This document shows positions 20,957-41,535 of a DNA stretch of 49,483 nt, piece after piece. Made by a program: the position numbers and the translations under genes. The notes below the pieces were generated by a model. The model made no database searches and was not told the DNA's origin. It was given only the letters and a program-made list of their open reading frames with translations. The stretch is from Planctomycetota bacterium (lineage in GTDB: Bacteria > Planctomycetota > PUPC01 > JABMSA01), in assembly GCA_013202185.1 (NCBI GenBank), contig JABMSA010000270.1:1-49483 (forward strand). The letters are read 5' to 3'. Every line of letters begins with the position of its first letter. The first letter of the stretch is position 1.

Positions 20957-21086
20957 CGGCTTCGTCCTCGCGGCCGGGCATGGCCTTTTGTGCGCGCCGA
21001 AAACGCGAACGAAGGCCGATGCCGTAGATGGAGATCATTGTGCCTATCAGTATGTAGGCCGACATTACGTATGCCCATTGGTTCAT
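20949..21086 (-). CDS. ccmD: Heme exporter protein D
   Basis: 45-aa single-TM peptide MNQWAYVMSAYILIGTMISIYGI... ATGA overlap with the ccmC stop. Position fits ccmABCD order. It is hidden inside a longer track ORF. Confidence 0.7.
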   Translation of the reverse strand: MNQWAYVMSAYILIGTMISIYGIGLRSRFRRAQKAMPGREDEADE

Positions 21087-21748: not shown

Positions 21749-21784
21749 AATCCTCAGGTTGTGCGATCGCGGAGGGCTGATGGT

Positions 21785-24557: not shown

Positions 24558-24570
24558 GAGGTCGGCGAGT

Positions 24571-26631: not shown

Positions 26632-26688
26632 TCAGTTCCGCTTTCTGTTGTTGTTCTGCTTGCGTGTGTCTTCAATCGCCGTCGAGTA

Positions 26689-27111
26689 TTATTCTGATCC
26701 GTACTCGCCTCTTTTGCTCTCGTATTTCGACGGGCACTTGAACATCAATTGACTGGCGACCAGCACCTTTCGCTCGGGGTGGTATTTTCCCTGCACCACG
26801 AGATCGCTGCCGGGCTCGAAGTTGGCGGGCAGGATTCCCTTGTAATAAACCGGCAGGGACGCTTCGTCGTCTTTCAGAACGAATTCGGTGTCGAGGGTCG
26901 TTTTGTCATGCTCGACGGACCCGGGCTCGATGATTCCTCGTACGCGTACGGCTCCGCCGTTGTAGGTATCGAGTTTTTTCTGGAACTGGCTCACGGAGTC
27001 GAAGAAGTCGAGGCTCATCAGCATGGTTGCACCGTACAGGAGCGCGGCAACACACATGGTCATGACAATTCCACCGACGATGAATTTCTTGCTGCCGCCG
27101 GGATTGCTCAT
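26689..27111 (-). CDS. ccmE: Heme chaperone CcmE, Cys-type (CXXXY) variant
   Basis: 140 aa from the ATG at 27111 (ATGA overlap with the upstream cytochrome gene). N-terminal TM anchor and OB-fold-like body. FKCPSKYES sits where classical CcmE has HXXXY. Confidence 0.85.
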   Translation of the reverse strand: MSNPGGSKKFIVGGIVMTMCVAALLYGATMLMSLDFFDSVSQFQKKLDTYNGGAVRVRGIIEPGSVEHDKTTLDTEFVLKDDEASLPVYYKGILPANFEPGSDLVVQGKYHPERKVLVASQLMFKCPSKYESKRGEYGSE

Positions 27112-29183
27112 TTGTTGTCTCCTTGAGTGCCGGAGATTCGTGATCCGATCTGCTGCTCGGCTGCGTCGAGGAGGTTGTCGGCCTCCTTCAAGAGGAGCTC
27201 GGCCATCGCGGGGTTGTGTACTCCCCAACTGCCGTCTTGCTCGATTGCCCGGAGCTTTGCCCGCGCCGCCCGCATGGCCGGTGCAGCCTGAGCGTGGGGT
27301 GCGTTGCCCTGGGCCTTCTCGAGGTCCGCGAGAATCTTTAGGCTGCTTTTGTGCAGCTTGCGTGTTGTGCCTTGCCAGAGGCTGATCATTGCTTTGCCGG
27401 TGCCCTTGTCGTGGCATTCGTCGCAAGCGGCGGCTACGGCCCTTGGTGGCTGGTTAGCTTCGATTTCGGTGTGGCAGGCCTCGCATGGCACGCCGTCGGA
27501 CATCGCGGCGGCCTTGTTCACGCGCGTGGGCAGGGCGCCGCCTTTGCCGGCGAGCATGTTGTTCTGCAACTGGTGGCAGCCCGAGCAGTCGTCGGCGCCA
27601 TCGTGGTGGCAGCTCGAGCAGTCGGCCTTCTTGACGGTCAGCTTGCCGTGCTCCGGCTCGTTACTGTGGCAGGTTTTGCACTCGATGTTTTCCTTGCCGA
27701 GGTGACGTTCGTGGGGGAACTGAACGTCTTCGTAACTGACGGTGGTGTTGCGCCTGAGGCCTATGTGGCAGCTCTTGATGCACGAAGTTATTATGTCGGA
27801 TTTGGCGCTGATCGGGCGGTATGCGACCATCAGCGGCTTGGTGTCTCCGGGAAGTGAAGCGGCGGCCTCACGGAGGCTCCTTTGGGCGGCGTCGATTATA
27901 TCGAGGGCATATATCATGTTATGCGCAGGCCCGCTTTTCTCAAGCATGTTCAGGTCTGATCGTGCGTTCGCGATTGTTTTTTCGATCTTTGCCTTGTTCT
28001 CGATTGCGATGCCCGACGCTCTTGCGAGGGCGTTTTCGACGCCGGCGAGGAGGCTGTTGGCTGTCTTGAGGCCGTCTTCGGATACGGCCAGCCACTTTTC
28101 GAGCATTACGCCGTAGCCCTTTCCGTGGCAGTCGACGCACGCCTGCTTCATTTCGGGGAGCACCACTTTGGCGCCATCGTGCGAGGCGAGCGTCTTGTGG
28201 TGGCATCCTTCACAACTGACCTTTGCCAGGAACATTGTGTCGGGGGATTCGGGCACGAGCGAGGCGCCTTTTCCTGCGAAGAGGTCGCGCTGTTGCTTGT
28301 GGCACTGCCCGCAGGTGGCGTCGAGGCTTTCGGTGATCTCGACGAGGCCGTGCCGAATCTCTGCATGACACTCGAAACATTCCACCTTGTGCTCGGTGAC
28401 GTGGGTGTGATGGATGGTTTCTTTGTCGTACTTGTGCCTGTCTTTTTCCATGTGGCAATCGTAACATCGGGTTTCAGGGACCTCGCCTGTGCCGCGTGTG
28501 ACATGGATGTGGCACTTCTCGCACTCCACACCCTGGCTGATGTACTTGGCGTGATCGAGTGTGAAACCCTTGTGCGTTACGGTTTGGCTGGGTGCGCCGT
28601 GGCAGTTGCCGCATCCGCCGAGCGGGTGGCCTTCGGGCGTGTTGAGGAAATGGCAGGTGAAGCATACGCTTTCGGTCACGGAGATATGATCACCCTGAAC
28701 GAGCTGCGAATGGCAGGTGGTGCAGCGCAGCTCGATGCCTCTCCGCTCGCCCCCGAGGTGGTCCTCGTGGTCGAAGACTATCCCGCGCTTGTATGTTGCC
28801 TTGCCGCTGAGAAGGCGCGTTTCGTGGCATCCGGATTGCAGGCACGCCTTGTCTTCGACTTCCGCCCGTGGCCTGCGGTCGTAAGTGCCCACGACGTATC
28901 GGATGGTGGTTGCCATTGCGTGCGTCTTCTGCTTCATCAGAACGAGCGGGTTCTTCGAGAAGTGGCACGTGGGGCAGGCTACGTCGGCGTGGCTTGACGT
29001 TTTCCAGTTCGCGACGTAGGGCTTCATGTAGTGGCAGGAATTGCAGAACCACGGCTGCGAGGAGAAGTAGAACCCCGCGCCCGAGACGATCGCTCCCACG
29101 ACGACGGCCACTGCCGCCAGCCGCATCAACAAGCGCCGGTGCTCCTTGAGAAGCTTGAGAATGTCAGTCAGCAGACTTTTCAA
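27108..29183 (-). CDS. Membrane-anchored multiheme cytochrome (16 CXXCH + 2 variant motifs) with NapC/NirT/NrfH-like N-terminus
   Basis: One N-terminal TM helix followed by CNSCHYM ... W ... SSHADVACPTCH (NapC/NirT-like). 16 CXXCH plus CLQSGCH (CX4CH) and CIKSCH (CX3CH). A helical, heme-free insert of about 110 aa lies mid-protein. TTG start at 29183 is preceded by AGAAGG. Confidence 0.85.
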   Translation of the reverse strand: MKSLLTDILKLLKEHRRLLMRLAAVAVVVGAIVSGAGFYFSSQPWFCNSCHYMKPYVANWKTSSHADVACPTCHFSKNPLVLMKQKTHAMATTIRYVVGTYDRRPRAEVEDKACLQSGCHETRLLSGKATYKRGIVFDHEDHLGGERRGIELRCTTCHSQLVQGDHISVTESVCFTCHFLNTPEGHPLGGCGNCHGAPSQTVTHKGFTLDHAKYISQGVECEKCHIHVTRGTGEVPETRCYDCHMEKDRHKYDKETIHHTHVTEHKVECFECHAEIRHGLVEITESLDATCGQCHKQQRDLFAGKGASLVPESPDTMFLAKVSCEGCHHKTLASHDGAKVVLPEMKQACVDCHGKGYGVMLEKWLAVSEDGLKTANSLLAGVENALARASGIAIENKAKIEKTIANARSDLNMLEKSGPAHNMIYALDIIDAAQRSLREAAASLPGDTKPLMVAYRPISAKSDIITSCIKSCHIGLRRNTTVSYEDVQFPHERHLGKENIECKTCHSNEPEHGKLTVKKADCSSCHHDGADDCSGCHQLQNNMLAGKGGALPTRVNKAAAMSDGVPCEACHTEIEANQPPRAVAAACDECHDKGTGKAMISLWQGTTRKLHKSSLKILADLEKAQGNAPHAQAAPAMRAARAKLRAIEQDGSWGVHNPAMAELLLKEADNLLDAAEQQIGSRISGTQGDNK

Positions 29184-29194
29184 TGGTGCACCTT

Positions 29195-29623
29195 CTAAAT
29201 CATCGGCGGCCCGGACCGGCCGGTCTGAGCTTCCGGGCCGGCGAGTTGATCGTCCTCCCGACGGCGCGCGGCCAGCAGGCTCACGGCCGCCGCAACGGCC
29301 TGGTTGTCGAATGGCTTTGGAAAGAACAATGCATCATGGAAGAGGTCTTGCGTGCCTTTGCTGCGCCACAACTGCGAAGCGTACAGCGAGAGGAAGATCA
29401 CAGGCAGCCCCGGCATTGCACGCTTGATCCTGCTGATGAAATCCATCTCTTCGTCTTCGGGTGTCTTGACATCTGCTATCACCACGTCGATTTCCGGCTG
29501 CCGTGCAAGCTGCTCGGCTCGCCGGCCCGGCCGGCAGGTTTGAGTATGGTGGTCTTGAGCCAGAAACATGTTTACCGCGTATGAAATGTGGGGATCGGGA
29601 CTGATGATCAGAACGTTAGCCAC
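29195..29623 (-). CDS. Stand-alone receiver-domain protein
   Basis: VANVLIISPDP ... EIDVVIADVKTPEDEEMDF ... LPVIFLS ... FPKPF is a receiver fold with no output domain. GTG at 29623 is preceded by GGAG and overlaps the kinase stop by 8 nt. The track ORF extends to 29695. TAG stop. Confidence 0.7.
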   Translation of the reverse strand: MANVLIISPDPHISYAVNMFLAQDHHTQTCRPGRRAEQLARQPEIDVVIADVKTPEDEEMDFISRIKRAMPGLPVIFLSLYASQLWRSKGTQDLFHDALFFPKPFDNQAVAAAVSLLAARRREDDQLAGPEAQTGRSGPPMI

Positions 29624-31076
29624 GCGGGCTTGCTCCTTCGGCGTTGTAGTCGCCGGCCCTATTGCCTGCCCTTTCCCCCTTTCCGAGGTATACATGGAAC
29701 CGCGAGCCTTCGTCCTTGCGGCTGTCGACGCTGATGCGGCCGCCGAACTTTCGCACGATGGCGTCGGTGACGCTCAACCCGAGGCCGGTGCCCTGGCCTG
29801 CCTCCTTGGTGGTGAAGAACGGCTCGAAAATGTGCTGCATCTCCTTTGTGTTCATCCCGATGCCGGTGTCGGCGAATGTTACGCGTATCTCATTATCGAC
29901 GTCGGCGGTGGTGATGGTAAGGGATCCGCCGTCGGGCATGGCATCGAAGGCGTTGGAGATGATGTTGACGAAGACCTGCATGAGTTGGTCGCCGCTGGCG
30001 CGGATGGTGGGCAGTCCGTCACTTAAGGCCGTTTCTATCTCGACGCGTTGGGATCGCTTGTCGTAGCGCGCCATTTTCACAGCCAGGGCGATCATCTCGT
30101 TGGCATCGAGTATTTCCTCGTCGGAGTCCATCGGGCGGGCGAAGTTCACCATGTCGCGCACTATCCGGCTGATGCGGTCGATGTGAGAGTACACCAGCGA
30201 GAGGCTTTCCTGAAGTGATGTATCGTCGGTTTTGCGCATGAGGTACTGGACGAGCGAAGAGATGGATGCGAGGGGATTGCCGATCTCGTGGGCCACGCCC
30301 GCGGCCATCTGCCCGATGACGGCCATTTTCTCCTGGTGCATGATCTGCTTCTGCAATTCGGCGGCTTCGTTTGAGTGCCGCTCGAGGAAATACATCGTGT
30401 TGTTGAAGCTCTCGCCGATGGCGGTGAGCATGTCGGGCCGGGCGTTCACATATATGCTGCAGCCCAGGCAGCTTGGGCGGCCATCGCTGTCGGGCTCGGT
30501 TTGCAGGCAATCTTTCCTGGCTATTTGCCAGCACCTCAGATCATACGAGCCGTAGCCCGGGCAGACTTCCCGCGTGCAGCCCTTTTCTTCCCAGCAGGGC
30601 AGGAGGTTGGGGTTCTCGTACCTGATATCGAAATTGCCTTCGGCTTCCGCGCGACGAATCAGGTCGACGATCTGGTCGGTGCAGCAAGCCAGTTCTTCTT
30701 CGTGCCGGCGCAGTTCTCTGGCGGCGCGCTCGCCCATGGCTGCCTGGCGGCGTAGCCGCATGCACCTATTGGCACACCAGAATATCGCGTTGGCTGCGGC
30801 CAGGCCCATAGCAATGGCATACAGCGGCCACGGTGTCTTGATTACTTGCAGAACATCAGCGGCCATCCACGCAGCGACGAGCAGCACTGGGGCAGCTATC
30901 CATGGCAGGCGGGCCGGCCAGGCCGGCCGCCCCACGGCATCGCCGCTCGAGCCGGTTGCAGCTACGGCTTCGGAATTGTTCTTTTGCGCTGCCTTAGCGT
31001 GTGTGCTATGACGTTTCATAGCAGTTGGCTCGCCGATGTTGTTTCTGTGCCTGCTCGTGCAAGGATGGCGCCTCAA
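29616..31076 (-). CDS. Sensor histidine kinase with Cys-rich (CW...C...CP...CW) sensor module
   Basis: Two TM helices and a coiled coil, then CWEEKGCTREVCPGYGSYDLRCWQIARKDCLQTEPDSDGRPSCLGCSIY. H-box AAGVAHEIGNPLASI. HATPase boxes NIISNAFDA, DTGIGM, GTGLGLSV. Start is TTG 31076 or ATG 31019. Confidence 0.85.
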   Translation of the reverse strand: MRRHPCTSRHRNNIGEPTAMKRHSTHAKAAQKNNSEAVAATGSSGDAVGRPAWPARLPWIAAPVLLVAAWMAADVLQVIKTPWPLYAIAMGLAAANAIFWCANRCMRLRRQAAMGERAARELRRHEEELACCTDQIVDLIRRAEAEGNFDIRYENPNLLPCWEEKGCTREVCPGYGSYDLRCWQIARKDCLQTEPDSDGRPSCLGCSIYVNARPDMLTAIGESFNNTMYFLERHSNEAAELQKQIMHQEKMAVIGQMAAGVAHEIGNPLASISSLVQYLMRKTDDTSLQESLSLVYSHIDRISRIVRDMVNFARPMDSDEEILDANEMIALAVKMARYDKRSQRVEIETALSDGLPTIRASGDQLMQVFVNIISNAFDAMPDGGSLTITTADVDNEIRVTFADTGIGMNTKEMQHIFEPFFTTKEAGQGTGLGLSVTDAIVRKFGGRISVDSRKDEGSRFHVYLGKGERAGNRAGDYNAEGASPRG

Positions 31077-32749
31077 TCATCGTCGTAATTTTCCGGATCA
31101 TGATCTTCATCATGGCAGGTGAGGTAACATTCGCCCGTTCGCGGGCCCAAGTCACTGAACTCCATCAGTTCGTCTTTCTCCGACGGAAACACAATGGCCC
31201 TGTCGAAGTTTATCAGATGCGTGTGGTTGGTCGTGTCGCCCTGCGTGTAGCTTACTCCATGCGGGTCGTGGCAAGCCGAACAGGGAGCCCTTTCTTCGAC
31301 AATGTGCTTCGTGTGTTCTTCGAAGCTTTCATTATTGAGGATGCTGTCGCGGCTGTGGCAGCCGTAGCACAGAGCGTAGGCTGCGGCGCTTTCGGTGGTG
31401 TAGTCGGCGGTGCTGTAGTTTCGCACGAGGATCGGCTCGAAGGCCGAGCCGTGCGGCCCGCGAGCGGCCGATGCGTCGCCGGCGTGGCAGTCGGTGCAGG
31501 TGATGACGCTGTTTTCCGTCAACGGCGGGATGAGGCTGGGAACGTCGTCATCGACCCCGGATTCAATCAAGGGATGAAAGGAGGGGTTCGACGGATCAAA
31601 TTCGAGGCGAGTGTTCGTTTGCACGATCTGCCTGCTTATCGTTGATGGCGGCCGATTGGGGTTGTCGGCGTGGCACTTGAAACAGATCTCATATTCATTT
31701 GTTGCAACAGCCACGACGGCTCCGGCGGCGTCGACGCCCGAGACCGCCTCGAGGCTTCCCGGCAAATTCGCGCCCTGCCCCTCGCGCACGGCGTGGGGGT
31801 TGTGGCAGTCGTGGCATTCCACGTGCATGGGCGCCGACAGCGGATTCTCATTGGGATCGTGAATGCCGCGATAAAGATTAAACCCGTGGGCGCTGGGTTT
31901 GCGCGCGGCGGCGGCGATGTCCTTTTCCGCCACGCTGCCGTCGTGGCAGGCCAGGCAGTTTCTCTCCTCGTCATTGTGAATGAGCAGCCTGGCATGGCTG
32001 CCCGCGTGGTGGGGGGCGTGGCAGTTTTCGCAGCCGTTGTCGGCCACGTTGGTCCATTGAGTGTGCCAGGGCCCCGGGCCGGAGCTGCTGGTGGCCGTAG
32101 ACGTGGCGTGAACGGAATTGGGCCAGCCGCCGACTTGATGACACGACACACACAAGGCCGAGCCGCGGTTGTCCATCACGAGGAATCCCGGCACGGTGTC
32201 GATGTGCGGGTCATGACACGTGATGCACTGCATCTGGCCATTCTTGTCGAGCTTGATCGCGCCGGACTTCAACGCCTGGGGGTGCTTTATCTGCGGGTCA
32301 CTTGCCGCCAGTGCCGCGTCATAATTGAACGACACCGGATGGTCATCGGAGAGGTCCGTGCCAAGCTCGAGATTGCCCTGAAGCATCTCGCCGATGGTTG
32401 CCGGCAGGGTCGTCCCTCCCGGGCCCATAGCCCCGGGGGCCAGGGTGCCGTCGTGGCAGCTCAGGCACAGCTTCGTTGAGCCGGTAGGCTGGCCGACGTG
32501 CGCCTGCAGGGTTGTGCTTTCGTACACCTTATACACACGCTTCGACAGATCGGGGTCCCACAGTGGCCGCATTCCGCCCATCCTGCCATGCGAAACGTGA
32601 CAGTACGTGCAGGCTCCTCTGGGGCTTCCTTCTACGCCGTCGAGAGGAAACTTGTGGACCGTTGCCGATTGCGCGCCTCGTGCATATCCGCTGCCCCACA
32701 GGCAGCAGAGCATCACCAGGCACGTAACCGGCTGCCGCAAGCAGGCCAT
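31073..32749 (-). CDS. Secreted multiheme cytochrome c (11 CXXCH + 1 CX3CH)
   Basis: Signal-like N-terminus. CTYCH, CLSCH, CITCH, CVSCH, CENCH, CLACH, CHDCH, CFKCH, CTDCH, CYGCH, CSACH plus CYLTCH. The first four hemes repeat the tetraheme module of the genes at 37661-39131. Confidence 0.85.
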   Translation of the reverse strand: MACLRQPVTCLVMLCCLWGSGYARGAQSATVHKFPLDGVEGSPRGACTYCHVSHGRMGGMRPLWDPDLSKRVYKVYESTTLQAHVGQPTGSTKLCLSCHDGTLAPGAMGPGGTTLPATIGEMLQGNLELGTDLSDDHPVSFNYDAALAASDPQIKHPQALKSGAIKLDKNGQMQCITCHDPHIDTVPGFLVMDNRGSALCVSCHQVGGWPNSVHATSTATSSSGPGPWHTQWTNVADNGCENCHAPHHAGSHARLLIHNDEERNCLACHDGSVAEKDIAAAARKPSAHGFNLYRGIHDPNENPLSAPMHVECHDCHNPHAVREGQGANLPGSLEAVSGVDAAGAVVAVATNEYEICFKCHADNPNRPPSTISRQIVQTNTRLEFDPSNPSFHPLIESGVDDDVPSLIPPLTENSVITCTDCHAGDASAARGPHGSAFEPILVRNYSTADYTTESAAAYALCYGCHSRDSILNNESFEEHTKHIVEERAPCSACHDPHGVSYTQGDTTNHTHLINFDRAIVFPSEKDELMEFSDLGPRTGECYLTCHDEDHDPENYDDD

Positions 32750-33817
32750 TTACTGGTCCCCCGGTCGAAGCTGAAAAACCTGTACTCGGCGATTGTAGGA
32801 ATCGCTTACGAACATCCTGTCGGCCGAGTCGATGAATATGGCGCCGGGCAGGCAGAACTGCCCCGCTTCCCATCCCTCCTCGCCAAATGCCATCAGCAAG
32901 CGGCCCGAGCTGTCGAAAGCCTGGATGTTCTCAAAGCGCGCGTCGACCACCCAGATGTGCTCGGCGCCGTCCACGGCCACGGCTTTGGGCAACGAAAAAT
33001 TCCCGGGCCGATTGCCTTCCTCGCCGAACGATCGAATGTGCTCGCCGGCCAGGTCGAATATCTGAACACGAAAATTGAAACTATCGCATACGTATATTCT
33101 ACCATTTGCCACGGATAATCCGGTGGGGTAATTGAACTGTCCGGGGTGCCCGCCGGGCCCGCCAAACTCGAGCTTCACCCGGCCGCGCAGGTCGAAAGCC
33201 AGCACCCGGTGCCCGGAAGTGTCGGCCACGTACAGCAGCGAGTTGCTCTGGCTGAAGGCTATACCCGTTGGCCGGAGCATTCGCTCGGAGCTGAAACGCG
33301 AAAGAAGCTTGCCTTCCTGGTCCAGCACGGCGATGGAAGAGGCGGGCGGATCAGTCACGTAAAGACGGCCCTGCGTGTCCATAGCGATGCCGATGGGGGT
33401 CTGAGTGACCTCGTTCAGGGGCATCTGTGTATAGCGCCGGTCATCGAGCCCAAAGCGGTGGATGCACCTCCCGGCCGAGTCCACCACAAGCAGCTCCCGC
33501 GACGCCGTGAGCAGCAGGCCCTGGGGCGTAACAAGTGCGCCCGGCTGCCTGGCTCCGAACATCGTAGAGATCAGTTTCTGCCAGAAGGACTTGCCCGGGC
33601 GCAGGTCGTCGGCAGTGACGAACTGGCCGAGGCAAACGACCCGCGGCTCGAGGGGAGGCGCCGGCCACGTCGGCGAGTTCTGATTCGCCCTGAGGATCTC
33701 TCCGGGCGGAGTTGCGCAGCCCAGCGCGGCGCAGCACAGCAGCAGCGCCGCTGCGGCCTTGCAGGCCCTTCGTTTCGGAGCCGCCGAAAAGGAGTTGCCA
33801 TTGGTTTCATGCACCAC
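32750..33817 (-). CDS. NHL-repeat beta-propeller protein (probable lipoprotein or secreted)
   Basis: Repeated units of the type GQFNYPTGLSV..GRIYVCDSFNFRVQIFD and GNFSLPKAVAVD...IWVVD...NIQAFD. N-terminal LLLCCAALGCATP. The track ORF starts at TTG 33844. GTG 33817 follows GAGGAA and is preferred. Confidence 0.85.
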   Translation of the reverse strand: MVHETNGNSFSAAPKRRACKAAAALLLCCAALGCATPPGEILRANQNSPTWPAPPLEPRVVCLGQFVTADDLRPGKSFWQKLISTMFGARQPGALVTPQGLLLTASRELLVVDSAGRCIHRFGLDDRRYTQMPLNEVTQTPIGIAMDTQGRLYVTDPPASSIAVLDQEGKLLSRFSSERMLRPTGIAFSQSNSLLYVADTSGHRVLAFDLRGRVKLEFGGPGGHPGQFNYPTGLSVANGRIYVCDSFNFRVQIFDLAGEHIRSFGEEGNRPGNFSLPKAVAVDGAEHIWVVDARFENIQAFDSSGRLLMAFGEEGWEAGQFCLPGAIFIDSADRMFVSDSYNRRVQVFQLRPGDQ

Positions 33818-33827
33818 GGGCTTTTCC

Positions 33828-35822
33828 TCAGAACCGCCGCTCAAGACCGACAGTAAGTGACGTTCGCTGGACCTTTCCGCTGGAGTAGTTGCCTCTTGAG
33901 TGCTCCACGTTTGCAGCGAATCTGAAGGTGCGGAACGCCCACGTCAGCCCGGCGCGGCCAACGATCGAGCTTGTGGGGCCGGCGTCCGAGCTTTCCTCCT
34001 TGCGGTACCCGGCGGCATAGGTGAGGTTCAGGGTCTTGGTAACGGTCTGCTTGATGGTTGCCCTCATGTTGTACACCCGCGTTTCGCGCCGGTTGGGGGG
34101 GAAGTATTCGTAGTCGGAATAATCGGCGGAAAGGTTGAGACGCACGCCCCTGCGGCGGCCGGCGTAGTAGGCGGCGGTGTAGCGCGTTGAGCGATAGGGA
34201 GACGTTGCCAGATCGGAATCGCGCCTCTCTGCGGAGAGGGTGAGCCGGCCCAGGCGCTGCTTGGCGCCTATGGTGGTTGTGCGTTCGTCGCTCTCCACCA
34301 CACCGGGCAAGCTGGGCGTGATGGTCACGTCTCGCCTGGTATGGCGAATATACGGTGTGAGCCCGAACGAGAAGGCGTGGCGGATATAGCAGGTGTATGT
34401 GTTTGTCGCTTGGCGCTGGTTGCCGGGGCTTGTGTATTGATAACTGACCCGCACTTCATCGCCTTCGTTGATCCCGCTGCCGAAGGGGGCAATGCGGAGG
34501 GTTGTCCTCCCTGCGATTTCTATCACGATGTAGTCCGTGATCTCGTCGTGAGGGCTGCCGCTCGGATCCGTGACGGAAATGGTGTTTTGAATGATATTCT
34601 GTTCGACCAGGAACGTTTCCTGCAACGAGCTGAGATGGTGGCTTTCGTCCACAACGAACAAAGTACTCGCGGTTCCTTTGTCATCCCTGATGTCGTAGTC
34701 GGCCGAGCACCCGAGAAACAGGGTGCCCAGGCTGTTGAGCTTTTGATAGTTGACGGATAACGCCCCCCCGCGGCGGCCGGTTGTGCGGCCGGTGCTGTAT
34801 CGGTCTTGTGATGTGCGGATGCGGCCGGTGGTCTTGAGGCTTCGGTACAATTTGTGCGTGAAACCCACCCGGGCATTCCAGAGCTGCTGGGCGAGTTGAT
34901 CTCGCTGCCTGTCTTTGTAGCTGAAGTCGTATGTCGTCGAGAGATTGTCGGTGTGCTGCAGTTTGAGCTGCGTTCCCAAGTCGAGGTCGCTGAGCGACGT
35001 GTTACCCCGCCTGTCGCTGTAGCGCAGGCTGCTTGTCAGGCGGCCACGCCGCTCGTCGTCCAGAGAAACATTGTGACGGATCTGTATCTCGTCTTTTGCC
35101 GAGGAATCTTCAAGAAGGTTTGCCCGCGTTTCGGAGTGAATGTATCCCAGCGACACTCTTCCTGCCCGGCCGAGGCTGGTGGCGACGTCATATGCGAGGC
35201 TCGAACGTTCCGCAGTAGAACTCTCGGCCCCTTCGGTTGCGGCTTGCTCAACAACCTGCTCACGATCGAAGGTCAGCCTCATGGGCGTGCGCCTGTCGGC
35301 CTTCCTGAGGGTGAAACCGTGGCGGGTACGGCTCACATGCAAGCTCGAGGTGAAACGCCTCGGCACGACCTGGTCGCTTCGGCTGGCATGCAACCGCAGC
35401 GGAAAACGCTTCTCCTTGAGAATGTCGGCGGTCAGGTCGTACTCCATGAGGCTGCCCCTGCTGCTGCCGGAGGTGTCGCCTTCCTTGTATTTTTCCTGCG
35501 AGGCGCCGATCCGGCAATCGGCTGCCAACTCCACGAAGTTGGGATGGAGAATGGCGCCGGTCGTCTTCAGATCGAGGAACTCACTGACAACCGTAGAGGC
35601 GGCCTCGAGCTCATTGCCTGCGCTCTGGCTCTTCTCTCTGGCGGTTTGATACGTCGCGCCGATGCTTCCTGATGGCTTTTTCACTTTCAACAACTGAAGC
35701 CTCGACTTGCTGTCTGGCTTCCCCCTACAAGACGCGGCCAGCGCCGCCGTCAGCAGCAGCGCGGCACAAGTTCCAAGAACACGCCACTTTTCCCTATGAT
35801 GCACGCTTGCCCCTTTCCGCAA
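33828..35822 (-). CDS. Predicted large outer-membrane beta-barrel protein
   Basis: 664 aa. Signal peptide ending LAASC. Long run of short alternating hydrophobic/polar segments rich in Y/R/T/S/G. C-terminal ...SLTVGLERRF (terminal aromatic residue typical of OMPs). No heme motif. Start TTG 35822 or GTG 35804. Confidence 0.6.
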   Translation of the reverse strand: MRKGASVHHREKWRVLGTCAALLLTAALAASCRGKPDSKSRLQLLKVKKPSGSIGATYQTAREKSQSAGNELEAASTVVSEFLDLKTTGAILHPNFVELAADCRIGASQEKYKEGDTSGSSRGSLMEYDLTADILKEKRFPLRLHASRSDQVVPRRFTSSLHVSRTRHGFTLRKADRRTPMRLTFDREQVVEQAATEGAESSTAERSSLAYDVATSLGRAGRVSLGYIHSETRANLLEDSSAKDEIQIRHNVSLDDERRGRLTSSLRYSDRRGNTSLSDLDLGTQLKLQHTDNLSTTYDFSYKDRQRDQLAQQLWNARVGFTHKLYRSLKTTGRIRTSQDRYSTGRTTGRRGGALSVNYQKLNSLGTLFLGCSADYDIRDDKGTASTLFVVDESHHLSSLQETFLVEQNIIQNTISVTDPSGSPHDEITDYIVIEIAGRTTLRIAPFGSGINEGDEVRVSYQYTSPGNQRQATNTYTCYIRHAFSFGLTPYIRHTRRDVTITPSLPGVVESDERTTTIGAKQRLGRLTLSAERRDSDLATSPYRSTRYTAAYYAGRRRGVRLNLSADYSDYEYFPPNRRETRVYNMRATIKQTVTKTLNLTYAAGYRKEESSDAGPTSSIVGRAGLTWAFRTFRFAANVEHSRGNYSSGKVQRTSLTVGLERRF

Positions 35823-35844
35823 TGTTCAATCCCGGCGGCACAGA

Positions 35845-36447
35845 TCAACTTTTCAACAGGAGCCGGTTTTCTGAGCCGTGCGGGTCGTGGCAACGTGTGC
35901 AATCCTCCTTACTTGCGTGAGCATCGTTGCTTTCGATGAATGTGGGCGCCGTGAGGTCGTGGCAGGTGGCGCAGAGCTTTTCGGGGGGCTTTTTCAGCAG
36001 GGCCTTGTTTTCTGATTTGTGCGCCGAATGGCACTGCAGGCATGCCCACGCCGCCACCGGGCCGTGCCAGAATGTCGATTGCTCGTTGAAGCCCGTGTGG
36101 CACTTCGAGCACATTGCCTTCACGCGTGGCGTCGCGCTTGATCTGACCTCGATCATGTCATGACAGCCGTCGCACTTGCCCTTCTTGTAGGGCTCGTGGG
36201 TGTAGACCACCCTAGCGGGCTTCGGGCTGTCACCCACCGACTCGAGCCCGCCGTTCTGCTCATCGGGGATCGTGGTGGGCACTTCCGGCTCGGGCACCCC
36301 GTCGAAGAAGAAGCTGAGGGTTTGGTACCTTTGTTCGGGCGTGCAGTGGGCGCACACAATAACGGCGGCGGCGCACAGCATAGCAGCAATCCACGGCCGC
36401 GCGGTCGCCGGGCTTTTCGCGCATTGCTTGCCGGGTGTGCCGTTCAT
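35845..36447 (-). CDS. Pentaheme c-type cytochrome (c7/c3-like)
   Basis: CDGCH, CSKCH, CLQCH, CATCH, CTRCH. Hydrophobic N-terminus. ATGA overlap with the upstream NHL gene. Confidence 0.85.
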   Translation of the reverse strand: MNGTPGKQCAKSPATARPWIAAMLCAAAVIVCAHCTPEQRYQTLSFFFDGVPEPEVPTTIPDEQNGGLESVGDSPKPARVVYTHEPYKKGKCDGCHDMIEVRSSATPRVKAMCSKCHTGFNEQSTFWHGPVAAWACLQCHSAHKSENKALLKKPPEKLCATCHDLTAPTFIESNDAHASKEDCTRCHDPHGSENRLLLKS

Positions 36448-37556
36448 TGTTCGGTCGGCTGTGCAACCACCTTGGACGTTCCGAAGGCAAAAACGCTCAC
36501 TTTGTTCTTGCCATACTGGCTTGTGACCAGTATCAAGTACTGCGCGTCGAAGCTTGGCGCAATGTATTCCCGGAATAATTCGAGATTGTCGTAGTCTACT
36601 ATTACCTGTGCGGGCAGGAGGAGGCCCCCGTTTCCGTCTTCGTCGCCGGCGCCGCCGAAGTGCATCAGTGCCCGGCCCTCCTTGTTGAAGAGCTTTACGA
36701 TGCGCATTTTGTTGTCGACGACGTACACGATGCCCTCGCGGTCCACCGCTATGCCCTTTGGCAGCGCGAAGCGGCCGGGGGTGTCTCCGGCCTTGCCGAA
36801 TTGCAGGAGCGGCGTGCCGGTGACATCAATCTTCTGGACGCGGAAGTTAAGCATATCGCTGACGAGAATATGCCCGTCGCTGTCGAGTGCGAAGTTCGAC
36901 GGATAGTTGTATTCGCCCGGCTCTACGCCCCTGGCGCCCAGGGTGCGTTTCAGCTTGCGGGTCTTCTTGTCATATACTTTAATGTTGTGCTCCTTGATAT
37001 TGAGCACGAATACCTCTTCTCCGTACACGAGCACGTCGGCGGGCCGGAAGTCTTTTGTCTCGCCGTACGCGGTGACGTATGTGCCATCAGGACGATACAC
37101 GAGCACCTGGTTACGAACGGTATCGGCCACGTACAGCAGGCCGTCCTCGGCGAAGAAGATATTGATAGGCATCTTCAGCTTGCCCGGGCCCGTATTGCCT
37201 AGGGTCTTGCGGCGCTTGTTGCGCATGTCCATCACTACAATGCATGAGTCGCCACTGTCGGCAACGTATACCTTGCCGTCGCGAATGGCCACACCATAGG
37301 GCTTGACGATTGTTTTTCTGGCGGTCGGACGTTCCCCGACAATGAAGCGCTCGAGCCAGCCGGCCTCAGGCGCGGTGTCTTCGGAGCGTTTGAGGTTGCA
37401 CAGGAACTGTATGCGCGGTTCCTCCGGCGCGGGTGGGAAGAAAACGGGGTCCTTCGTGGCGACGGCCTGGATGTCGTCTCTCACGGGGCTTGCACAGCCG
37501 GCAACCGCCAGGCAGATGATCAGTATGGATATCGCTGCGGAAAAGGTTCTGGCCAT
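36444..37556 (-). CDS. NHL-repeat beta-propeller lipoprotein
   Basis: The ATG at 37556 gives MARTFSAAISILIICLAVAGCASP (lipobox VAGC). Repeats of the type KPYGVAIRDGKVYVADSGD, GEYNYPSNFALDSDGHILVSDMLNFRVQKID, GRFALPKGIAVDREGIVYVVD. The track ORF is 5'-extended to 37763. Confidence 0.85.
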   Translation of the reverse strand: MARTFSAAISILIICLAVAGCASPVRDDIQAVATKDPVFFPPAPEEPRIQFLCNLKRSEDTAPEAGWLERFIVGERPTARKTIVKPYGVAIRDGKVYVADSGDSCIVVMDMRNKRRKTLGNTGPGKLKMPINIFFAEDGLLYVADTVRNQVLVYRPDGTYVTAYGETKDFRPADVLVYGEEVFVLNIKEHNIKVYDKKTRKLKRTLGARGVEPGEYNYPSNFALDSDGHILVSDMLNFRVQKIDVTGTPLLQFGKAGDTPGRFALPKGIAVDREGIVYVVDNKMRIVKLFNKEGRALMHFGGAGDEDGNGGLLLPAQVIVDYDNLELFREYIAPSFDAQYLILVTSQYGKNKVSVFAFGTSKVVAQPTEQ

Positions 37557-37603
37557 GGTAGGGTTCTTCTTTGCTGGGAATCGACCACCGGCACCACAAG
37601 CTT

Positions 37604-37639
37604 CCCCGTTCCGAAGCTGATTGGAACTCCGGAACGGGG
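37604..37639 (-). repeat. Perfect 10-bp inverted repeat (intercistronic stem-loop)
   Basis: CCCCGTTCCG (37604-37613) and CGGAACGGGG (37630-37639) with a 16-nt loop. It lies in the 104-nt gap between the tetraheme gene and the NHL lipoprotein gene. No U-tract follows on the transcribed strand. Confidence 0.5.
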
Positions 37640-37660
37640 GAGGCGGGATTTGACGAGTGA

Positions 37661-38284
37661 TTACTTCTGAGAGGTATGACAGGCAACGCACAGAGCGCTG
37701 CCAGTGTTGGGTGCGCGCAGGAGGCTGTCCGCGTCGGTGTGCGGTGTGTGGCAGGTTGAGCACTCGATCCTGTGCTCTGTGACCATGGTGCCGGTGCCGG
37801 TGCCGTCATCCACCTCATGAGAGAACAGAGGCAGGTATGGCGAGGTTGCGGGCGGGTCCACCAAAATACCCTCCATACGGCCGCCCCGAACAGGCACCGT
37901 GCCGGCGCGACGGCTGCTGTCGCCATAGTCCACGCCGACCGGGTGGTCCTTGGTGAGGTCCGTGCCGAGCGCATGATCTGCCAGCGTCTCGCCGGGCGTG
38001 TCTGATTGAGAAATGGCAGTGACGCCGTCGTGGCAGCTCATGCACAGAAGTGACCCATGACCCAGAGAGGCGTCTGCACGCACGGCGATTGCGACTCCAT
38101 CCTGCTGAGCCCACAGATAGTCATCCTCTGTCGATCCGTGAGGAATGTGACAAGGCTTGCACACCTCCCCGTTGGCGATATCGTAATCTGCTGACATGTT
38201 GTGAGGGCCATCAGCCACGCCTCCGAAAGACGCCATCGAGACCGCACCAACAAACATCATTGCCAAAATCACTATTCTAGACAT
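37661..38284 (-). CDS. Tetraheme c-type cytochrome (paralog 2)
   Basis: 207 aa with a signal peptide. CKPCH, CMSCH, CSTCH, CVACH. Has the DHPVGVDY motif. Same length and motif order as the gene at 38508-39131. Confidence 0.85.
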   Translation of the reverse strand: MSRIVILAMMFVGAVSMASFGGVADGPHNMSADYDIANGEVCKPCHIPHGSTEDDYLWAQQDGVAIAVRADASLGHGSLLCMSCHDGVTAISQSDTPGETLADHALGTDLTKDHPVGVDYGDSSRRAGTVPVRGGRMEGILVDPPATSPYLPLFSHEVDDGTGTGTMVTEHRIECSTCHTPHTDADSLLRAPNTGSALCVACHTSQK

Positions 38285-38507
38285 TATTCATGACTCCTTT
38301 GCTAAGGTCCGAAAAAAAACAGAAACGCAAAGTCCAAACAGCTCTTACTTCTTCAGTGTTGCCGCAGCACCACCTCCTTTCATTCTTTTTTCTGTCGAGG
38401 TCAATATGTGGGCTTCTGCCTTGTCTCATCCCTGAACCGTAGCATCTGCCTTTCGTTTACTGTTTTCGCCGCATTCCCTGCGCGACGTCTGAAATCATGG
38501 CAATTAC

Positions 38508-39131
38508 TCACCAGGTCGCATGACACGCAATGCACATTGCACTGCCGTCATTTACAAAGCGAAGCAAATAGTCTTTGCTGGTGTTGTGCACCGCGTGGCA
38601 AGTGGCGCATTCCACTTGAACTTTCCCGGTTGTGGCGTTCTCGTAAAGCGGCAGATATTTGCCGCTGCCGGCGTCGATGCCCTCCTGATCCTCGTAGATT
38701 ATCGTTTTCTCCGCGTACCGCGAGCTGTCGGGATATTCGATGCCTACCGGATGATCGTCGGTCAATTTCATTCCGACGGACGACCGGCCTGTGAGTATCC
38801 AGCCGCCCGAGTTGTCGCCGCCAGTGTAGTTGTCGCGGACGGTTTGCCCGTCGTGGCAACCCAGGCACATCAGCGATTCATCTCCGAGGGTGGCGCCCTC
38901 CCACGTTGTGAAGGCGGTTCCGGGCTGGTAGGCGTGATTCCACAAGTAGCCTACAGTGTCGTCGCCGTCGTGCGGGGTGTGGCACGGCAGGCACAGCTCC
39001 GCGTTCGAGTTCGACCCTCTGAGATCGTGCTTGCTGTTTTTCATGTTCGCCAGCGATTCACCTGTCCACGGCGGCCCGATGACCAAAGCCGATACAAGTG
39101 CTATTCCTATGATGCGTTTCACGGCTCTCAT
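38508..39131 (-). CDS. Tetraheme c-type cytochrome (paralog 1)
   Basis: 207 aa from the ATG at 39131 (MRAVKRIIGIALVSALVIGPP signal peptide). CLPCH, CLGCH, CATCH, CIACH. Has the DHPVGIEY motif. The track ORF is 5'-extended to 39215. Confidence 0.85.
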   Translation of the reverse strand: MRAVKRIIGIALVSALVIGPPWTGESLANMKNSKHDLRGSNSNAELCLPCHTPHDGDDTVGYLWNHAYQPGTAFTTWEGATLGDESLMCLGCHDGQTVRDNYTGGDNSGGWILTGRSSVGMKLTDDHPVGIEYPDSSRYAEKTIIYEDQEGIDAGSGKYLPLYENATTGKVQVECATCHAVHNTSKDYLLRFVNDGSAMCIACHATW

Positions 39132-39265
39132 AACTGCATACCCTGTGACCCTTTCTTTTCGTTTCCTTTTGGTGTGAACGCATCCTTGCGAACATTCATT
39201 TGTGAGGTTATCCATCTGAAAACCGGCTGAGAGGCCAACGTGCGCCCTCTCGCCCGTTTTTCAAT

Positions 39266-40699
39266 TCACGGTGCTTTCTCAGCCTCCTCTTCTTCCGGAG
39301 CCCCCTTTCCTCTTGGCGGCGAGACCGCCCGCGCCGAGTAGTTCACCGCCTCCAGACGATCGTATCGTTTCGGGAGGTGGCAGCCGGAATCACAGTTTCC
39401 GCCGTTCTTTGTCCCGCTGAAGCCGATGGGCATGTCCCACTCTCCGAAGCGTGCGGTTGCCCTGACCAACTTGGGTGCATCCGTAGCGTGCGACGCGTGG
39501 CACGCGTGACACGCCCTTCCCTTGCGTTTCTTGTTTACATGCAGGAAGTGCAGGTTGCGGCTGCCATTGCGGAAATTGGTGGCCGTTTCGGTCTTGGCCT
39601 CGAGGACGAGCGCGTTGTTGTGGCAGCCGAAACACAGGGCGTATTCTTCCAGCTTGAAAGGCTTATAAAAATCGGGGGAGTAGCGCTTCGAGAGAAGCTG
39701 CGGTTTGTGCGGCCCGTGCACGTCGTGGCAGCCGGTGCAGGTGCCTTCCTGCACGGGAGCGTGCTTGAACTTGGGTCGCACTACCGTTCTTCGGATGTCG
39801 GGGATCGTGCGCCCGTCGAACATCTTGGATCCAGTGTGGCAGCCCAGGCACTGCTCCACCTGCGGCTTGCGCCCGAGCCCCACTACGTCGGAGACGTGTG
39901 GCTGGTGGCACTGCTCGCAGCCGTGATCTCTGAGGGCCGCCGCGTGCGAGTTGACCTTGTCGTCGCCAACCATTTTCTTGTCTTCGTGGCACTTGTAGCA
40001 CAAGTCGGGCCGGGCGGCCACGAGGAGCTTGGGTGCGTCGGAGCCGTGCCCCTTGTGACATGTCAGGCACCCTTGCTCAACCGGCTTGTGAACGCTCTTG
40101 TAAGTTTTGGAGTCATCGATTATCTCATCGTGGCACAGCGTGCACGTCTCGCGCTCGGTGCCTTTCAGCAACTTTGCGTGGTCGGAGTCATGCGCTTCGT
40201 GGCAGGCCGTACACAGCTTGAGCCCCACCGGCGCGTGAACGTGCTTTTTTCCGCCGGCGGTTGGCACGTCGTCGTGGCACGTTATGCAAAGCTCGCCGGG
40301 CTCTTCATTGAGCAGCAGCATTTCGTTGTTGGCACTATGAGGATTGTGGCAAGCGGCGCATTCGCCTGCCTCCGCCGGGAAGTGCTTCACCTTTTGGCTT
40401 ACCACGCCGATGTGGCAACCCGAGCAGAGCTTCTCGGACTCTCGCGCCAAGCCAAACTTGTGCCTGGCTTCGTTGCTCACGGTGTGGCAACTGCTGCACA
40501 TGTCGGCTGCGACCGGTCCGTGGACAAACTTGTTCTTCTTGAGGGCGTCGTGGCAGCCGGCTTCCGAGCAGCTTCTGCCCTTGAGGCTGGCAGGCGGCTT
40601 GGGTTTGGCGGCCTCGCCGGCCGGGGCCGGGCTGGCGTGAAGCACAGCCAGGATCAAGCCGCTTACCGCTGTGAGTGTGTGGGTTGTTCTCAACGTCAT
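39266..40699 (-). CDS. Secreted multiheme cytochrome c (13 CXXCH + CX4CH + CX3CH), c7/c3-repeat type
   Basis: Signal peptide. CSSCH, CSGCH, CAACH, CITCH, CTACH, CTLCH, CLTCH, CYKCH, CEQCH, CLGCH, CTGCH, CFGCH, CHACH plus CSEAGCH and CDSGCH. Repeated K..H.PV...C..CH units. ATG at 40699; the track begins at TTG 40702. Confidence 0.85.
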   Translation of the reverse strand: MTLRTTHTLTAVSGLILAVLHASPAPAGEAAKPKPPASLKGRSCSEAGCHDALKKNKFVHGPVAADMCSSCHTVSNEARHKFGLARESEKLCSGCHIGVVSQKVKHFPAEAGECAACHNPHSANNEMLLLNEEPGELCITCHDDVPTAGGKKHVHAPVGLKLCTACHEAHDSDHAKLLKGTERETCTLCHDEIIDDSKTYKSVHKPVEQGCLTCHKGHGSDAPKLLVAARPDLCYKCHEDKKMVGDDKVNSHAAALRDHGCEQCHQPHVSDVVGLGRKPQVEQCLGCHTGSKMFDGRTIPDIRRTVVRPKFKHAPVQEGTCTGCHDVHGPHKPQLLSKRYSPDFYKPFKLEEYALCFGCHNNALVLEAKTETATNFRNGSRNLHFLHVNKKRKGRACHACHASHATDAPKLVRATARFGEWDMPIGFSGTKNGGNCDSGCHLPKRYDRLEAVNYSARAVSPPRGKGAPEEEEAEKAP

Positions 40700-40729
40700 C
40701 AAAACCGATGTCCTGCGTTGCCTGGGTCG

Positions 40730-41275
40730 TTACAGTTCTTCGAGGAGATCGGCGTCGACCTCCATCGCAGCGCCCTGACCGATGAAGTCTACCTGGATCA
40801 CAAACCGCGCCTTGCCGCACGTGCGAACGACTATGCCCTCGACGCCCGCAAACGGCCCCGCGCTGATGCGGCACCGCTTGCCCCGAGCCACCTGGGGGTA
40901 AGGATCCAGCAGGGCATCGGCCTGGAGGGCTCGCTCAATCGCCGTGAGTTCCCTCACGAACCCTGCCTGGTCGGGTATGTCGAGCACTTGGGCGATCCGG
41001 TTGGTGGTCATCGCGGCGTAGCGGTCGCCGCCGCTGCCGCACATGAATATGTAAGAAGGAAAGAGCGGAAGAAGAACATGACGTTTTCTCCCGCCCGACA
41101 CCTTCACGCGCTCGATCATGGGCAAGAAGTACCCGATCCCGAGCCGGTGCAAGTCCCAAGCCAGAGCCTTTTCTGCACGCGCCTTTGTGTGAGCTACCCA
41201 CCACTGACCGTCCAACTGAGCGAGCCGCTCAACGGACGCGGACAAAACCGGCGGATTCTCGGATAACTTAAGCAT
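40730..41275 (-). CDS. NusG paralog (RfaH/UpxY/LoaP-like operon-specific antiterminator)
   Basis: 181 aa from the ATG at 41275. NGN-like WWVAHTKARAEKALAWDLHRLGIGYFLPM ... LFPSYIFM. KOW-like GKRCRISAGPFAGVEGIVV. It is the first gene of the cytochrome block. Confidence 0.8.
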   Translation of the reverse strand: MLKLSENPPVLSASVERLAQLDGQWWVAHTKARAEKALAWDLHRLGIGYFLPMIERVKVSGGRKRHVLLPLFPSYIFMCGSGGDRYAAMTTNRIAQVLDIPDQAGFVRELTAIERALQADALLDPYPQVARGKRCRISAGPFAGVEGIVVRTCGKARFVIQVDFIGQGAAMEVDADLLEEL

Positions 41276-41468
41276 CGGAAAGGATCGCCCGGGCACACTC
41301 CGTCCCTGTCGGTGCACCGAAATCAGACAGTTGCGGTAGACCTACAGGGGTGGCATGCACCCATAATCTCTCAGTTGTTAGACGTTCGCGGCTTCTCTGA
41401 CGGATGCTCTCTCGCTTCCGATTCTCACGAGGCCCGAGTTGTAGGTGCCATCGCAAGAGGAGAATTTC

Positions 41469-41519: not shown

Positions 41520-41535
41520 AGCAATTTACGTACCA
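41520..41535 (-). promoter_or_regulatory. Candidate sigma54 (-24/-12) promoter for the NusG-paralog / cytochrome operon
   Basis: The minus strand reads TGGTACGTAAATTGCT. The consensus is TGGCAC-N5-TTGCW. There is one mismatch and the GG-N10-GC spacing is correct. It lies about 245 nt upstream of the ATG at 41275. A sigma54-dependent activator gene is divergent. Confidence 0.45.

Follow-up and report, generated by a model that had tools for sequence, protein, structure and literature searches.

The stretch of DNA analysed here (the window; 49,483 nucleotides, nt) is contig JABMSA010000270.1 of a Planctomycetota metagenome-assembled genome, and all coordinates refer to it. Open reading frame (ORF) calls and domain searches placed twelve minus-strand genes in one block, from 41275 down to 27108 (Table 1). 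They encode a NusG paralog, a cytochrome with 15 heme sites (cyt15), two tetraheme cytochromes (A and B), a beta-propeller lipoprotein (NHL1), a pentaheme cytochrome (cyt5), a protein of 664 amino acids (aa), a second propeller lipoprotein (NHL2), a dodecaheme cytochrome (cyt12), a histidine kinase, a receiver and a membrane-anchored cytochrome with 18 heme sites (cyt18). An earlier sequence-only reading had listed the same genes in the same order, with 53 CXXCH and 5 CX3-4CH heme motifs, and both the list and the count proved exact. It had proposed that the block holds every part of an electron path spanning the envelope, in an arrangement not recognised from described systems, and that it is either a new conduit type or a machine for the secretion and assembly of cytochrome filaments. 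Our analysis supported the presence of all the parts and favoured the second alternative, a machine of a kind that has already been described: the block probably forms a single operon that encodes an OmcE-type system of extracellular cytochrome filaments.

The genes for NHL1 and cyt5, for cyt12 and the kinase, and for cyt18 and the following CcmE overlap by 4 bases each, NHL2 and cyt12 are separated by 0 bases, and the widest gap within the block (223 bases) lies between the two tetraheme genes. The same-strand array runs past 27108 unbroken, with the start codon of ccmE overlapping the cyt18 stop, followed by ccmF and then ccmB and ccmC. Thus the limits 27108-41275, as given in the sequence-only reading, held for the gene content and not for the end at 27108, where the coupled array continues into the ccm genes. 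Counting all six-frame ORFs of at least 100 aa, the window contains 62 CXXCH motifs in 51,475 residues; 53 of them fall within six ORFs of the block and 7 of the remainder in one other cytochrome (19620-20387, minus strand). This concentration is not due to chance. In the deposited annotation the 664-aa protein (NQT19311.1) and tetraheme A (NQT19315.1) are hypothetical proteins.

Table 1. Features of the cytochrome block and its borders (window coordinates).
Feature	Position	Strand	Details
Divergent regulatory pair in decay	41967-43575	+	kinase remnant 41967-42134; NtrC-type activator 42211-43575
Sigma-54-type promoter candidate TGGTACGTAAATTGCT	41520-41535	-	consensus TGGYAC-N5-TTGCW
Conserved 30-nt leader block GGTGCACCGACAGGGACGGAGTGTGCCCGG	41289-41318	-	just 5' of the NusG-paralog ATG
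NusG paralog	40730-41275	-	first operon gene; 181 aa, NGN and KOW; ATG at 41275, longer GTG ORF reaches 41317
cyt15, 15-heme-site cytochrome	39266-40702	-	13 CXXCH, 1 CX3CH, 1 CX4CH; Sec signal
OmcE-family tetraheme A	38508-39131	-	207 aa; four CXXCH
OmcE-family tetraheme B	37661-38284	-	207 aa; 35% identity to A
15-bp stem-loop without U tract	37604-37639	-	between the tetraheme B and NHL1 genes; window z -2.7
NHL1, six-blade beta-propeller lipoprotein	36444-37556	-	Pfam NHL 1.4e-17; lipobox VAGC
cyt5, pentaheme	35845-36447	-	5 CXXCH; Paired_CXXCH 1.1e-21
Predicted giant barrel	33828-35822	-	664 aa; Pfam: none; AlphaFold2 and Foldseek
NHL2, beta-propeller lipoprotein	32750-33844	-	Pfam NHL 7.9e-28; lipobox ALGC
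cyt12, dodecaheme	31073-32749	-	11 CXXCH, 1 CX3CH
Membrane histidine kinase	29616-31076	-	HisKA and HATPase_c; cytoplasmic Cys-rich motif
Stand-alone receiver	29195-29695	-	Response_reg 6.3e-9; actual start probably GTG at about 29623
cyt18, 18-heme-site membrane-anchored cytochrome	27108-29183	-	16 CXXCH, 1 CX3CH, 1 CX4CH; N-terminal NapC/NirT domain
ccmE and ccmF	24571-27111	-	Pfam CcmE 6.3e-24, CcmF_C 8.4e-37; ccmE ATG at 27111

Both tetrahemes matched OmcE when searched against the PDB. For tetraheme A the matches were to 7TFS (3.1e-19) and 9YUQ (5.5e-13) and spanned aa 36-233 of the long ORF, and for tetraheme B to 9YUQ (7.8e-10) and 7TFS (2.6e-9), spanning aa 2-204. These entries, OmcE of Geobacter sulfurreducens (7TFS) and the bundled OmcE of Desulfuromonas soudanensis (9YUQ), are the sole two solved OmcE filaments. 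In an alignment of 28 homologs the eight heme-binding Cys, the four motif His and the distal ligands H35, H127 and H182 were invariant, and the fourth distal His, H54, nearly so; A and B both keep all eight Cys and all conserved His, including the N-terminal one. On the strength of these alignments, tetrahemes A and B are OmcE homologs, A being probably the major filament subunit and B possibly a minor one. A tandem omcE pair was also found in the metagenomic relatives L082-L084. The 223-nt spacer between the two omcE paralogs (38285-38507, minus strand) contains a run of eight U after a stem-forming sequence, and its folding was only marginally more stable than that of shuffled sequences (z -1.3).

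The smallest omcE clusters have been reported to always encode two multihemes, two beta-propeller lipoproteins, OmcE and a large beta-barrel, and in five phyla the barrel and propeller served to mark those OmcE homologs that form nanowires (Petersen et al. bioRxiv 10.1101/2025.10.22.684050). All members of this minimal set (OmcE, two propeller lipoproteins, a large barrel, at least two multihemes) are present and contiguous in the window. When compared with the omcE cluster of G. sulfurreducens (locus L080), tetraheme A matched OmcE at 3.4e-23, cyt15 matched the 9-heme cytochrome at 7.4e-75 and NHL1 matched the NHL protein at 8.8e-45, both NHL proteins giving values of about 1e-45. The proposal of an unrecognised arrangement, or new conduit type, was therefore not supported: the tetrahemes are OmcE homologs by alignment and the gene set is that of a minimal omcE cluster. 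Since this set is published, two features that had been counted as distinctive, the pair of NHL propellers and the unpaired barrel, are hallmarks of a known kind of cluster; the NusG paralog and the two-component pair did stand as distinctive, in the form of lineage-specific additions.

When each GTDB species was represented by one genome and scanned with an OmcE alignment, at least 582 encoding loci were confirmed, of which the best 79 were numbered L001-L079; component counts were made on the 36 loci with near-full flanks, here called full-length. The best 79 of the at least 582 loci came from Planctomycetota/Phycisphaerae, Verrucomicrobiota, Bacteroidota, Ignavibacteria/Chlorobiota, Calditrichota, Gemmatimonadota, Nitrospirota, Gamma- and Betaproteobacteria, Kiritimatiellota, Spirochaetota, Deferribacteres and Desulfobacteraceae. 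The tetraheme was present in 35 of the 36 full-length loci, NHL2 in 33, the barrel in 32, and NHL1 and the long dodecaheme in 31 each; homologs of cyt5 were found in 22. The sequence-only reading had named co-occurrence of barrel, NHL proteins and tetraheme paralogs as a check on its proposal, and the five core components were found together in 27/36 full-length loci, from more than 12 phyla. The usual order was OmcE-NHL1-cyt5-barrel(-cyt15), with NHL2-dodecaheme(-kinase), and a look-up started from a barrel of only 23% identity returned the same neighbours. CcmF and CcmE genes lie beside the cluster in L001, L025 and L060 as well, while in L035 only a CcmE match was found, at the contig end. 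In L082-L084 the proteins were 52-66% identical to those of the window and the order was kept throughout: a divergent kinase and sigma-54 activator, then NusG paralog, cyt15, two OmcE, NHL, cyt5, barrel, NHL, dodecaheme, kinase, receiver and NapC-type cytochrome. We concluded from this synteny that the core block is a real, widely conserved operon. Around it lies a lineage-specific shell, consisting of the candidate sigma-54 promoter, the NusG paralog, the kinase-receiver pair, the NapC/NrfH-type cyt18 and the translational coupling into ccmE.

The dodecaheme cyt12 is itself related to the filament subunit. The OmcE-family profile aligned end to end on its aa 7-205 (profile positions 6-204 of 206, E 2.7e-41), the N-terminal His included, and PDB searches returned 9YUQ (1.1e-15) and 7TFS (1.8e-14). 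The remaining 350 residues hold eight more hemes in paired-CXXCH units. That the protein might consist of three tandem OmcE modules was considered and rejected, because only the N-terminal third fits and the rest gave short paired-CXXCH matches. An OmcE match was found in 47 of 48 long dodecaheme homologs, and protein comparison with L080 revealed no counterpart in the G. sulfurreducens omcE locus. We regard the dodecaheme as a candidate for the filament base or anchor. In the related loci NHL2 is encoded almost always directly 5' of the dodecaheme gene, and NHL1 comes after OmcE in most. In three Planctomycetales loci an NHL1-type propeller is fused to an octaheme (L018, 10516-12594, plus strand; L070, 10243-12516, plus strand; L085, 7118-9130, minus strand), and the fusions occupy the slot where NHL1 and cyt5 overlap in the window. 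Such natural fusions argue for direct contact between propeller and cytochrome, and together with the OmcE module of the dodecaheme they count, at the level of protein sequence, for a physical association of the parts.

Profile searches assigned no Pfam or NCBIfam family to the 664-aa protein. An AlphaFold2 model built on a 60-sequence alignment, which superseded an earlier one from 5 sequences (predicted local distance difference test, pLDDT, 68.9), reached a pLDDT of 90.7 and a predicted template-modelling score of 0.75, and was all beta with about 28-30 long antiparallel strands. A Foldseek search against the PDB returned large outer-membrane barrels only (TonB-dependent receptors, MtrB, LptD, FimD/PapC ushers and SlpA). 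The sequence-only reading had named this protein a beta-barrel candidate and had made its proposal depend on that assignment, which was borne out: as modelled, the protein is an outer-membrane-type giant beta-barrel. A small beta domain is inserted at about aa 397-455; it is highly conserved, the most conserved part of the family, and holds the invariant D430 and the nearly invariant Y431 and G448. A word-index search yielded 5 relatives, and the family became visible through a full HMMER scan of 1.84 billion representatives, which found 1,958. Towards the 752-aa protein of the G. sulfurreducens omcE cluster the hidden Markov model (HMM) of the 60 sequences gave no match at E<=10, and hhalign gave a probability of 1.5%. 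Orthology with that barrel can thus not be claimed.

The best TM-score of the barrel model was 0.43-0.44, to MtrB (6r2q_B) at 11% sequence identity, and other big barrels scored similarly; the likeness to MtrB in the model appears generic and not a specific relationship. In the same structure, cyt15 matched MtrA (6r2q_A, 2.3e-13). It scored 121 bits with the MtrA/DmsE-family model TIGR03508 (cutoff 192), and in sequence resembles an MtrA-like periplasmic cytochrome. The resemblance of cyt15 to MtrA and the place of MtrB as best fold match are what one would see if the block encoded a non-filamentous conduit of the Mtr or porin-cytochrome (Pcc) type, with the MtrA-like cytochrome inside the barrel and with the dodecaheme and OmcE homologs as monomeric surface or periplasmic proteins that never polymerise. 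Comparable porin-cytochrome clusters of Verrucomicrobiota and Acidobacteriota, which include OmcE-like cytochromes, have indeed been read as Mtr-like conduits (PMC5615132). We consider this unlikely for the window. The two solved structures homologous to the tetrahemes are those of filaments, the heme ligands are all conserved along with the N-terminal His, the block has no MtrC-like decaheme, a TM-score of 0.43 is no better than generic barrel similarity, and two dedicated propeller lipoproteins as well as the OmcE-module fusion are foreign to Mtr or Pcc systems. The reading as an OmcE-type filament system was therefore preferred.

At the inner end of such a system, cyt18 has an N-terminal transmembrane helix and matched Pfam Cytochrom_NNT (PF03264) at aa 20-106 with 36.4 bits (cutoff 24.1) and NrfH (PDB 2j7a_C) at 3.2e-8. 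It is not an NrfH equivalog by NCBIfam (42 bits, cutoff 134). Homologs of cyt18 are paired with homologs of cyt15 in L005, L020 and L060. By family membership, cyt18 is the probable interface with the quinol pool. NapC/NrfH-type and Mtr-type modules are reversible in principle, as the MtoAB and PioAB systems illustrate. The same hardware could thus work inward, carrying electrons from Fe(II), reduced humics, a cathode or a syntrophic partner to the quinone pool, and homologous clusters do occur in sulfur-oxidising Thiodiazotropha, Woeseiaceae and Betaproteobacteria. We gave inward flow little credence: sequence sets no direction, the gene neighbourhood (Nqr, NuoEFG-like, ccm and heme synthesis genes) is uninformative about it, and the characterised OmcE systems come from metal-reducing organisms (Petersen et al. 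bioRxiv 10.1101/2025.10.22.684050; PMC12307469). Pfam and NCBIfam searches of the block found no catalytic subunit family, which led us to reject a further idea, that it encodes a respiratory enzyme of the periplasm (a nitrite or sulfite reductase, for example).

The consensus TGGYAC-N5-TTGCW had a single match on both strands of the 49.5-kb window, where 0.1 would be expected, and this match aligned with TGGCACAGCAATTGC, a perfect TGGCAC-N5-TTGC, in the leaders of L082 and L083. A sigma-54 activator gene lies divergent and upstream of the operon. Nearer to the first gene, the 30-nt leader block shares 27/30 bases with L082/L083 while the surrounding leader is poorly conserved; in L083 a stop codon before the ATG shows it to be non-coding. 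Judged by this conservation it is a candidate recruitment or regulatory site. The NusG paralog matched Pfam NusG (PF02357, 7.5e-11) and KOW (PF00467), and is 66% identical to the first gene of the L083 operon. With NCBIfam models it scored 82.9 bits for UpxY (cutoff 100), 57.6 for RfaH (144.5) and 34.2 for LoaP (125), compared with 19.2 for housekeeping NusG (TIGR00922, cutoff 135.7). On these profile scores it is a specialised, UpxY/RfaH-like paralog distinct from housekeeping NusG. Behind the two tetraheme genes L083 carries, in the same position as the stem-loop of the window, one of equal size (z -3.3) in which several base changes preserve pairing. Canonical intrinsic terminators were not found between the genes on the minus strand, terminator-like matches being at chance level, and Rfam returned nothing in the leader or intergenic regions. 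A hairpin behind the subunit genes would be typical of operons in which a major subunit is expressed more strongly than its assembly genes, and would give a rationale for a processivity factor.

The divergent regulatory pair is damaged. Its kinase is a C-terminal HATPase remnant, with only aa 185-240 of the 264-aa L083 kinase aligning (~55 residues). The activator is 74% identical to its relative over aa 1-450 and is interrupted at 42319-42321 by an in-frame TAG, the corresponding codon of the relative being CAG (Gln). Either regulatory decay or assembly error would explain this state. If it were decay, the locus might be silent, having lost its sigma-54 activator pair and with it proper expression of the operon; the -24 element TGGTAC in place of TGGCAC would point the same way. 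Such a silent locus seems very improbable to us, as the twelve structural genes are intact, every heme motif is kept, and a lone stop codon in a genome assembled from metagenomic reads could reflect an error or variation between strains. Were translation to restart at GTG 42325, the activator would lack part of its receiver domain.

The kinase within the block contains a cytoplasmic Cys-rich motif, PCW..C..CP..CW..C..C..C (PCWEEKGC..CPGYG..RCWQ..C..C..C), at about aa 160-225, which matched no Pfam family. It may be a metal or redox sensor. That the motif is a general trait of cluster-linked kinases was rejected, because it is kept in the L083 orthologue only and is absent in the kinases of other phyla. 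A kinase gene does lie 3' of the dodecaheme gene in several other phyla. The receiver is 56% identical to the 137-aa receiver of L083.

Taken as an OmcE-type filament system, the operon would work as follows. The NapC/NrfH-type cyt18, anchored in the membrane, would exchange electrons with the quinone pool; transport across the periplasm would fall to the MtrA-like cyt15, perhaps together with cyt5. The barrel of about 28-30 strands would provide the passage through the outer membrane. Tetrahemes A and B would make up the part outside the cell, which is most likely a filament polymerised as in Geobacter and Desulfuromonas. The dodecaheme might join the first filament subunit to the heme chain in the barrel or the periplasm, its OmcE module acting as the first or last subunit. 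The NHL lipoproteins may be periplasmic chaperones or scaffolds with one OmcE-fold client each, NHL1 for OmcE and NHL2 for the dodecaheme, which they would keep in the periplasm and deliver to the barrel. Transcription would start from the sigma-54 promoter, and the NusG paralog would keep RNA polymerase processive over ~14 kb, past the conserved hairpin and into the ccm genes. Of this scheme, the analysis establishes the homologies, the fold class of the barrel, the synteny, the fusions and the promoter motif; topology, polymerisation, chaperone function, antitermination and the direction of flow are deduced. A more specific model is that the OmcE module of the dodecaheme co-polymerises as the first filament subunit while its 8-heme tail threads the ~30-strand barrel, that the NHL proteins are dedicated chaperones, that tetraheme B is a minor (tip or terminator) subunit, and that sigma-54 and a NusG-type antiterminator drive the system. 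We put this combination forward as speculative and rather doubtful as a whole. If true, with the tail in the barrel and the module in the filament, the wire would be anchored and electrically plugged into a porin-cytochrome conduit.

Several points weigh against the filament reading or parts of it. Polymerisation is deduced from ~30% sequence identity alone. The barrel has no detectable homology to the Geobacter barrel, so their equivalence is argued from position and predicted fold class. The NusG paralog stays below the NCBIfam cutoff of every named subfamily and, at E<=1e-3, it was found in 0/79 of the other related loci, while it is present in L082-L084. The leader block showed no stable RNA fold (z +1.24 versus shuffles), no Rfam match and no similarity to ops. 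With the kinase remnant and the stop in the activator the operon may be poorly activated, unless these are assembly errors. Finally, the direction of electron flow is not readable from sequence.

The operon lies within a heme island. Downstream are ccmE, ccmF, ccmB, ccmC and hemL (17706-19178 and 21083-27111, minus strand), and upstream (44639-49280, plus strand) are hemA, for glutamyl-tRNA reductase, and two radical-SAM proteins, one of which has NirD/L-like helix-turn-helix domains in the relative. This upstream group resembles the alternative heme (Ahb) pathway. CcmF (24571-26631, minus strand) bears a C-terminal zinc-ribbon extension (Pfam Zn_ribbon at aa 656-679), which is unusual for CcmF. 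Between ccmF and ccmB, at a place where a CcmH/CcmI-type protein might be expected, a 505-aa protein (23235-24752, minus strand) matched only weakly a CarboxypepD_reg-like domain. The cytochrome with 7 CXXCH motifs (19620-20387, minus strand) lies just 3' of the ccm genes and is flanked by two small proteins without a family match (20384-20956 and 19000-19644). Further downstream on the same strand (3884-8992 and 12860-16565) are, as judged from N-terminal sequences, NuoG/F/E-like subunits of an NAD-linked dehydrogenase, which resembles a formate dehydrogenase or hydrogenase, and a gene set for Nqr (Na+-translocating NADH:quinone oxidoreductase).

Secretion of nanowires, their anchoring, their charging with electrons, their start and their termination are stated as unresolved (Petersen et al. 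bioRxiv 10.1101/2025.10.22.684050; PMC12307469), and no anchor, tip or stopper candidate was encoded in the omcE operons examined by Petersen et al. (bioRxiv 10.1101/2025.10.22.684050). The operon and the at least 582 OmcE loci offer such candidates: a dodecaheme with its own propeller, a second OmcE paralog, NHL-cytochrome fusions and a barrel family with a conserved insert. Broad distribution, the unannotated barrel family, the OmcE-module dodecaheme and the sigma-54 and NusG arrangement are handles on anchoring, assembly and control. OmcE-type clusters are here extended past the five reported phyla to Planctomycetota, Verrucomicrobiota, Bacteroidota, Ignavibacteria, Calditrichota, Gemmatimonadota, Kiritimatiellota and others, which matters when extracellular electron transfer is to be predicted from metagenomes. 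To a specialist, the existence of OmcE clusters beyond Desulfuromonadia would come as no surprise. As far as comparison of sequences and loci goes, what lies beyond the published descriptions consulted is the host phylum, the barrel family without a Pfam model, the OmcE-module dodecaheme and the lineage-specific shell; literature searches pairing OmcE with Planctomycetes found no description of such a cluster for this phylum.

The closest known system is the omcE cluster of Desulfuromonadia (the GSU0615-0619 region of G. sulfurreducens and that of D. soudanensis WTL). The window shares with it the OmcE tetraheme with the same heme ligands, the NHL lipoproteins, a large barrel gene adjoining omcE, an MtrA-like cyt15 homologous to the 9-heme protein of G. 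sulfurreducens, and linkage to cytochrome maturation genes, which are ResB/CcsB in Geobacter and Ccm in the window. It differs in its barrel family, which has no detectable sequence relation to the Geobacter 752-aa protein, in having two OmcE paralogs and an OmcE-module dodecaheme, in lacking the glycosylation gene set, in the added NapC-type cytochrome, kinase-receiver pair, NusG paralog and sigma-54 promoter, and in its host phylum, which is outside the five of Petersen et al. Because cyt15, the NHL proteins and OmcE have homologs in both and the barrels do not match, the two would be clusters of the same kind in which the barrel is different or has diverged beyond recognition.

The OmcS-companion (osc) genes of G. 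sulfurreducens, as relayed in PMC13194489 from Shen et al. 2025 (Cell Chem Biol), have been assigned roles in folding, secretion and morphology. In that account, as in the window, a filament cytochrome gene precedes genes for which roles in folding, porin-like secretion and morphology are proposed, and large periplasmic multihemes are encoded as well. The subunit of the window is OmcE-type and not the hexaheme OmcS, and OmcS was not matched in PDB searches of five block cytochromes (tetrahemes A and B, cyt12, cyt15 and cyt18). With MtrCAB and the Geobacter Pcc/Ext systems the operon has in common a periplasmic MtrA-like multiheme, a large barrel, an extracellular multiheme and a NapC/CymA-like quinol dehydrogenase. 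It differs from them in a barrel of about 28-30 strands rather than 26, which is not a sequence homolog, and in its two propeller lipoproteins and OmcE-family subunits; no block protein reached the MtrC/OmcA-family model of surface decahemes in Pfam and NCBIfam, where there were faint matches to domains II/IV only. In the anchor model, a dedicated periplasmic chaperone for each client would be a feature shared with chaperone-usher pili. The NusG paralog differs from RfaH, UpxY and LoaP in its sub-cutoff scores, in a would-be target that is a sigma-54 cytochrome operon, and in having no recognisable ops element but an uncharacterised conserved 30-nt block. The arrangement of NusG paralog and sigma-54 promoter would be a new regulatory context for antiterminators of this class. 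With RfaH, UpxY and LoaP the NusG paralog shares the NGN and KOW domains, its best profiles being UpxY and RfaH, and like that of UpxY in the capsule operons of Bacteroides its gene opens, at the 5' end, a long operon for what would be a surface structure.

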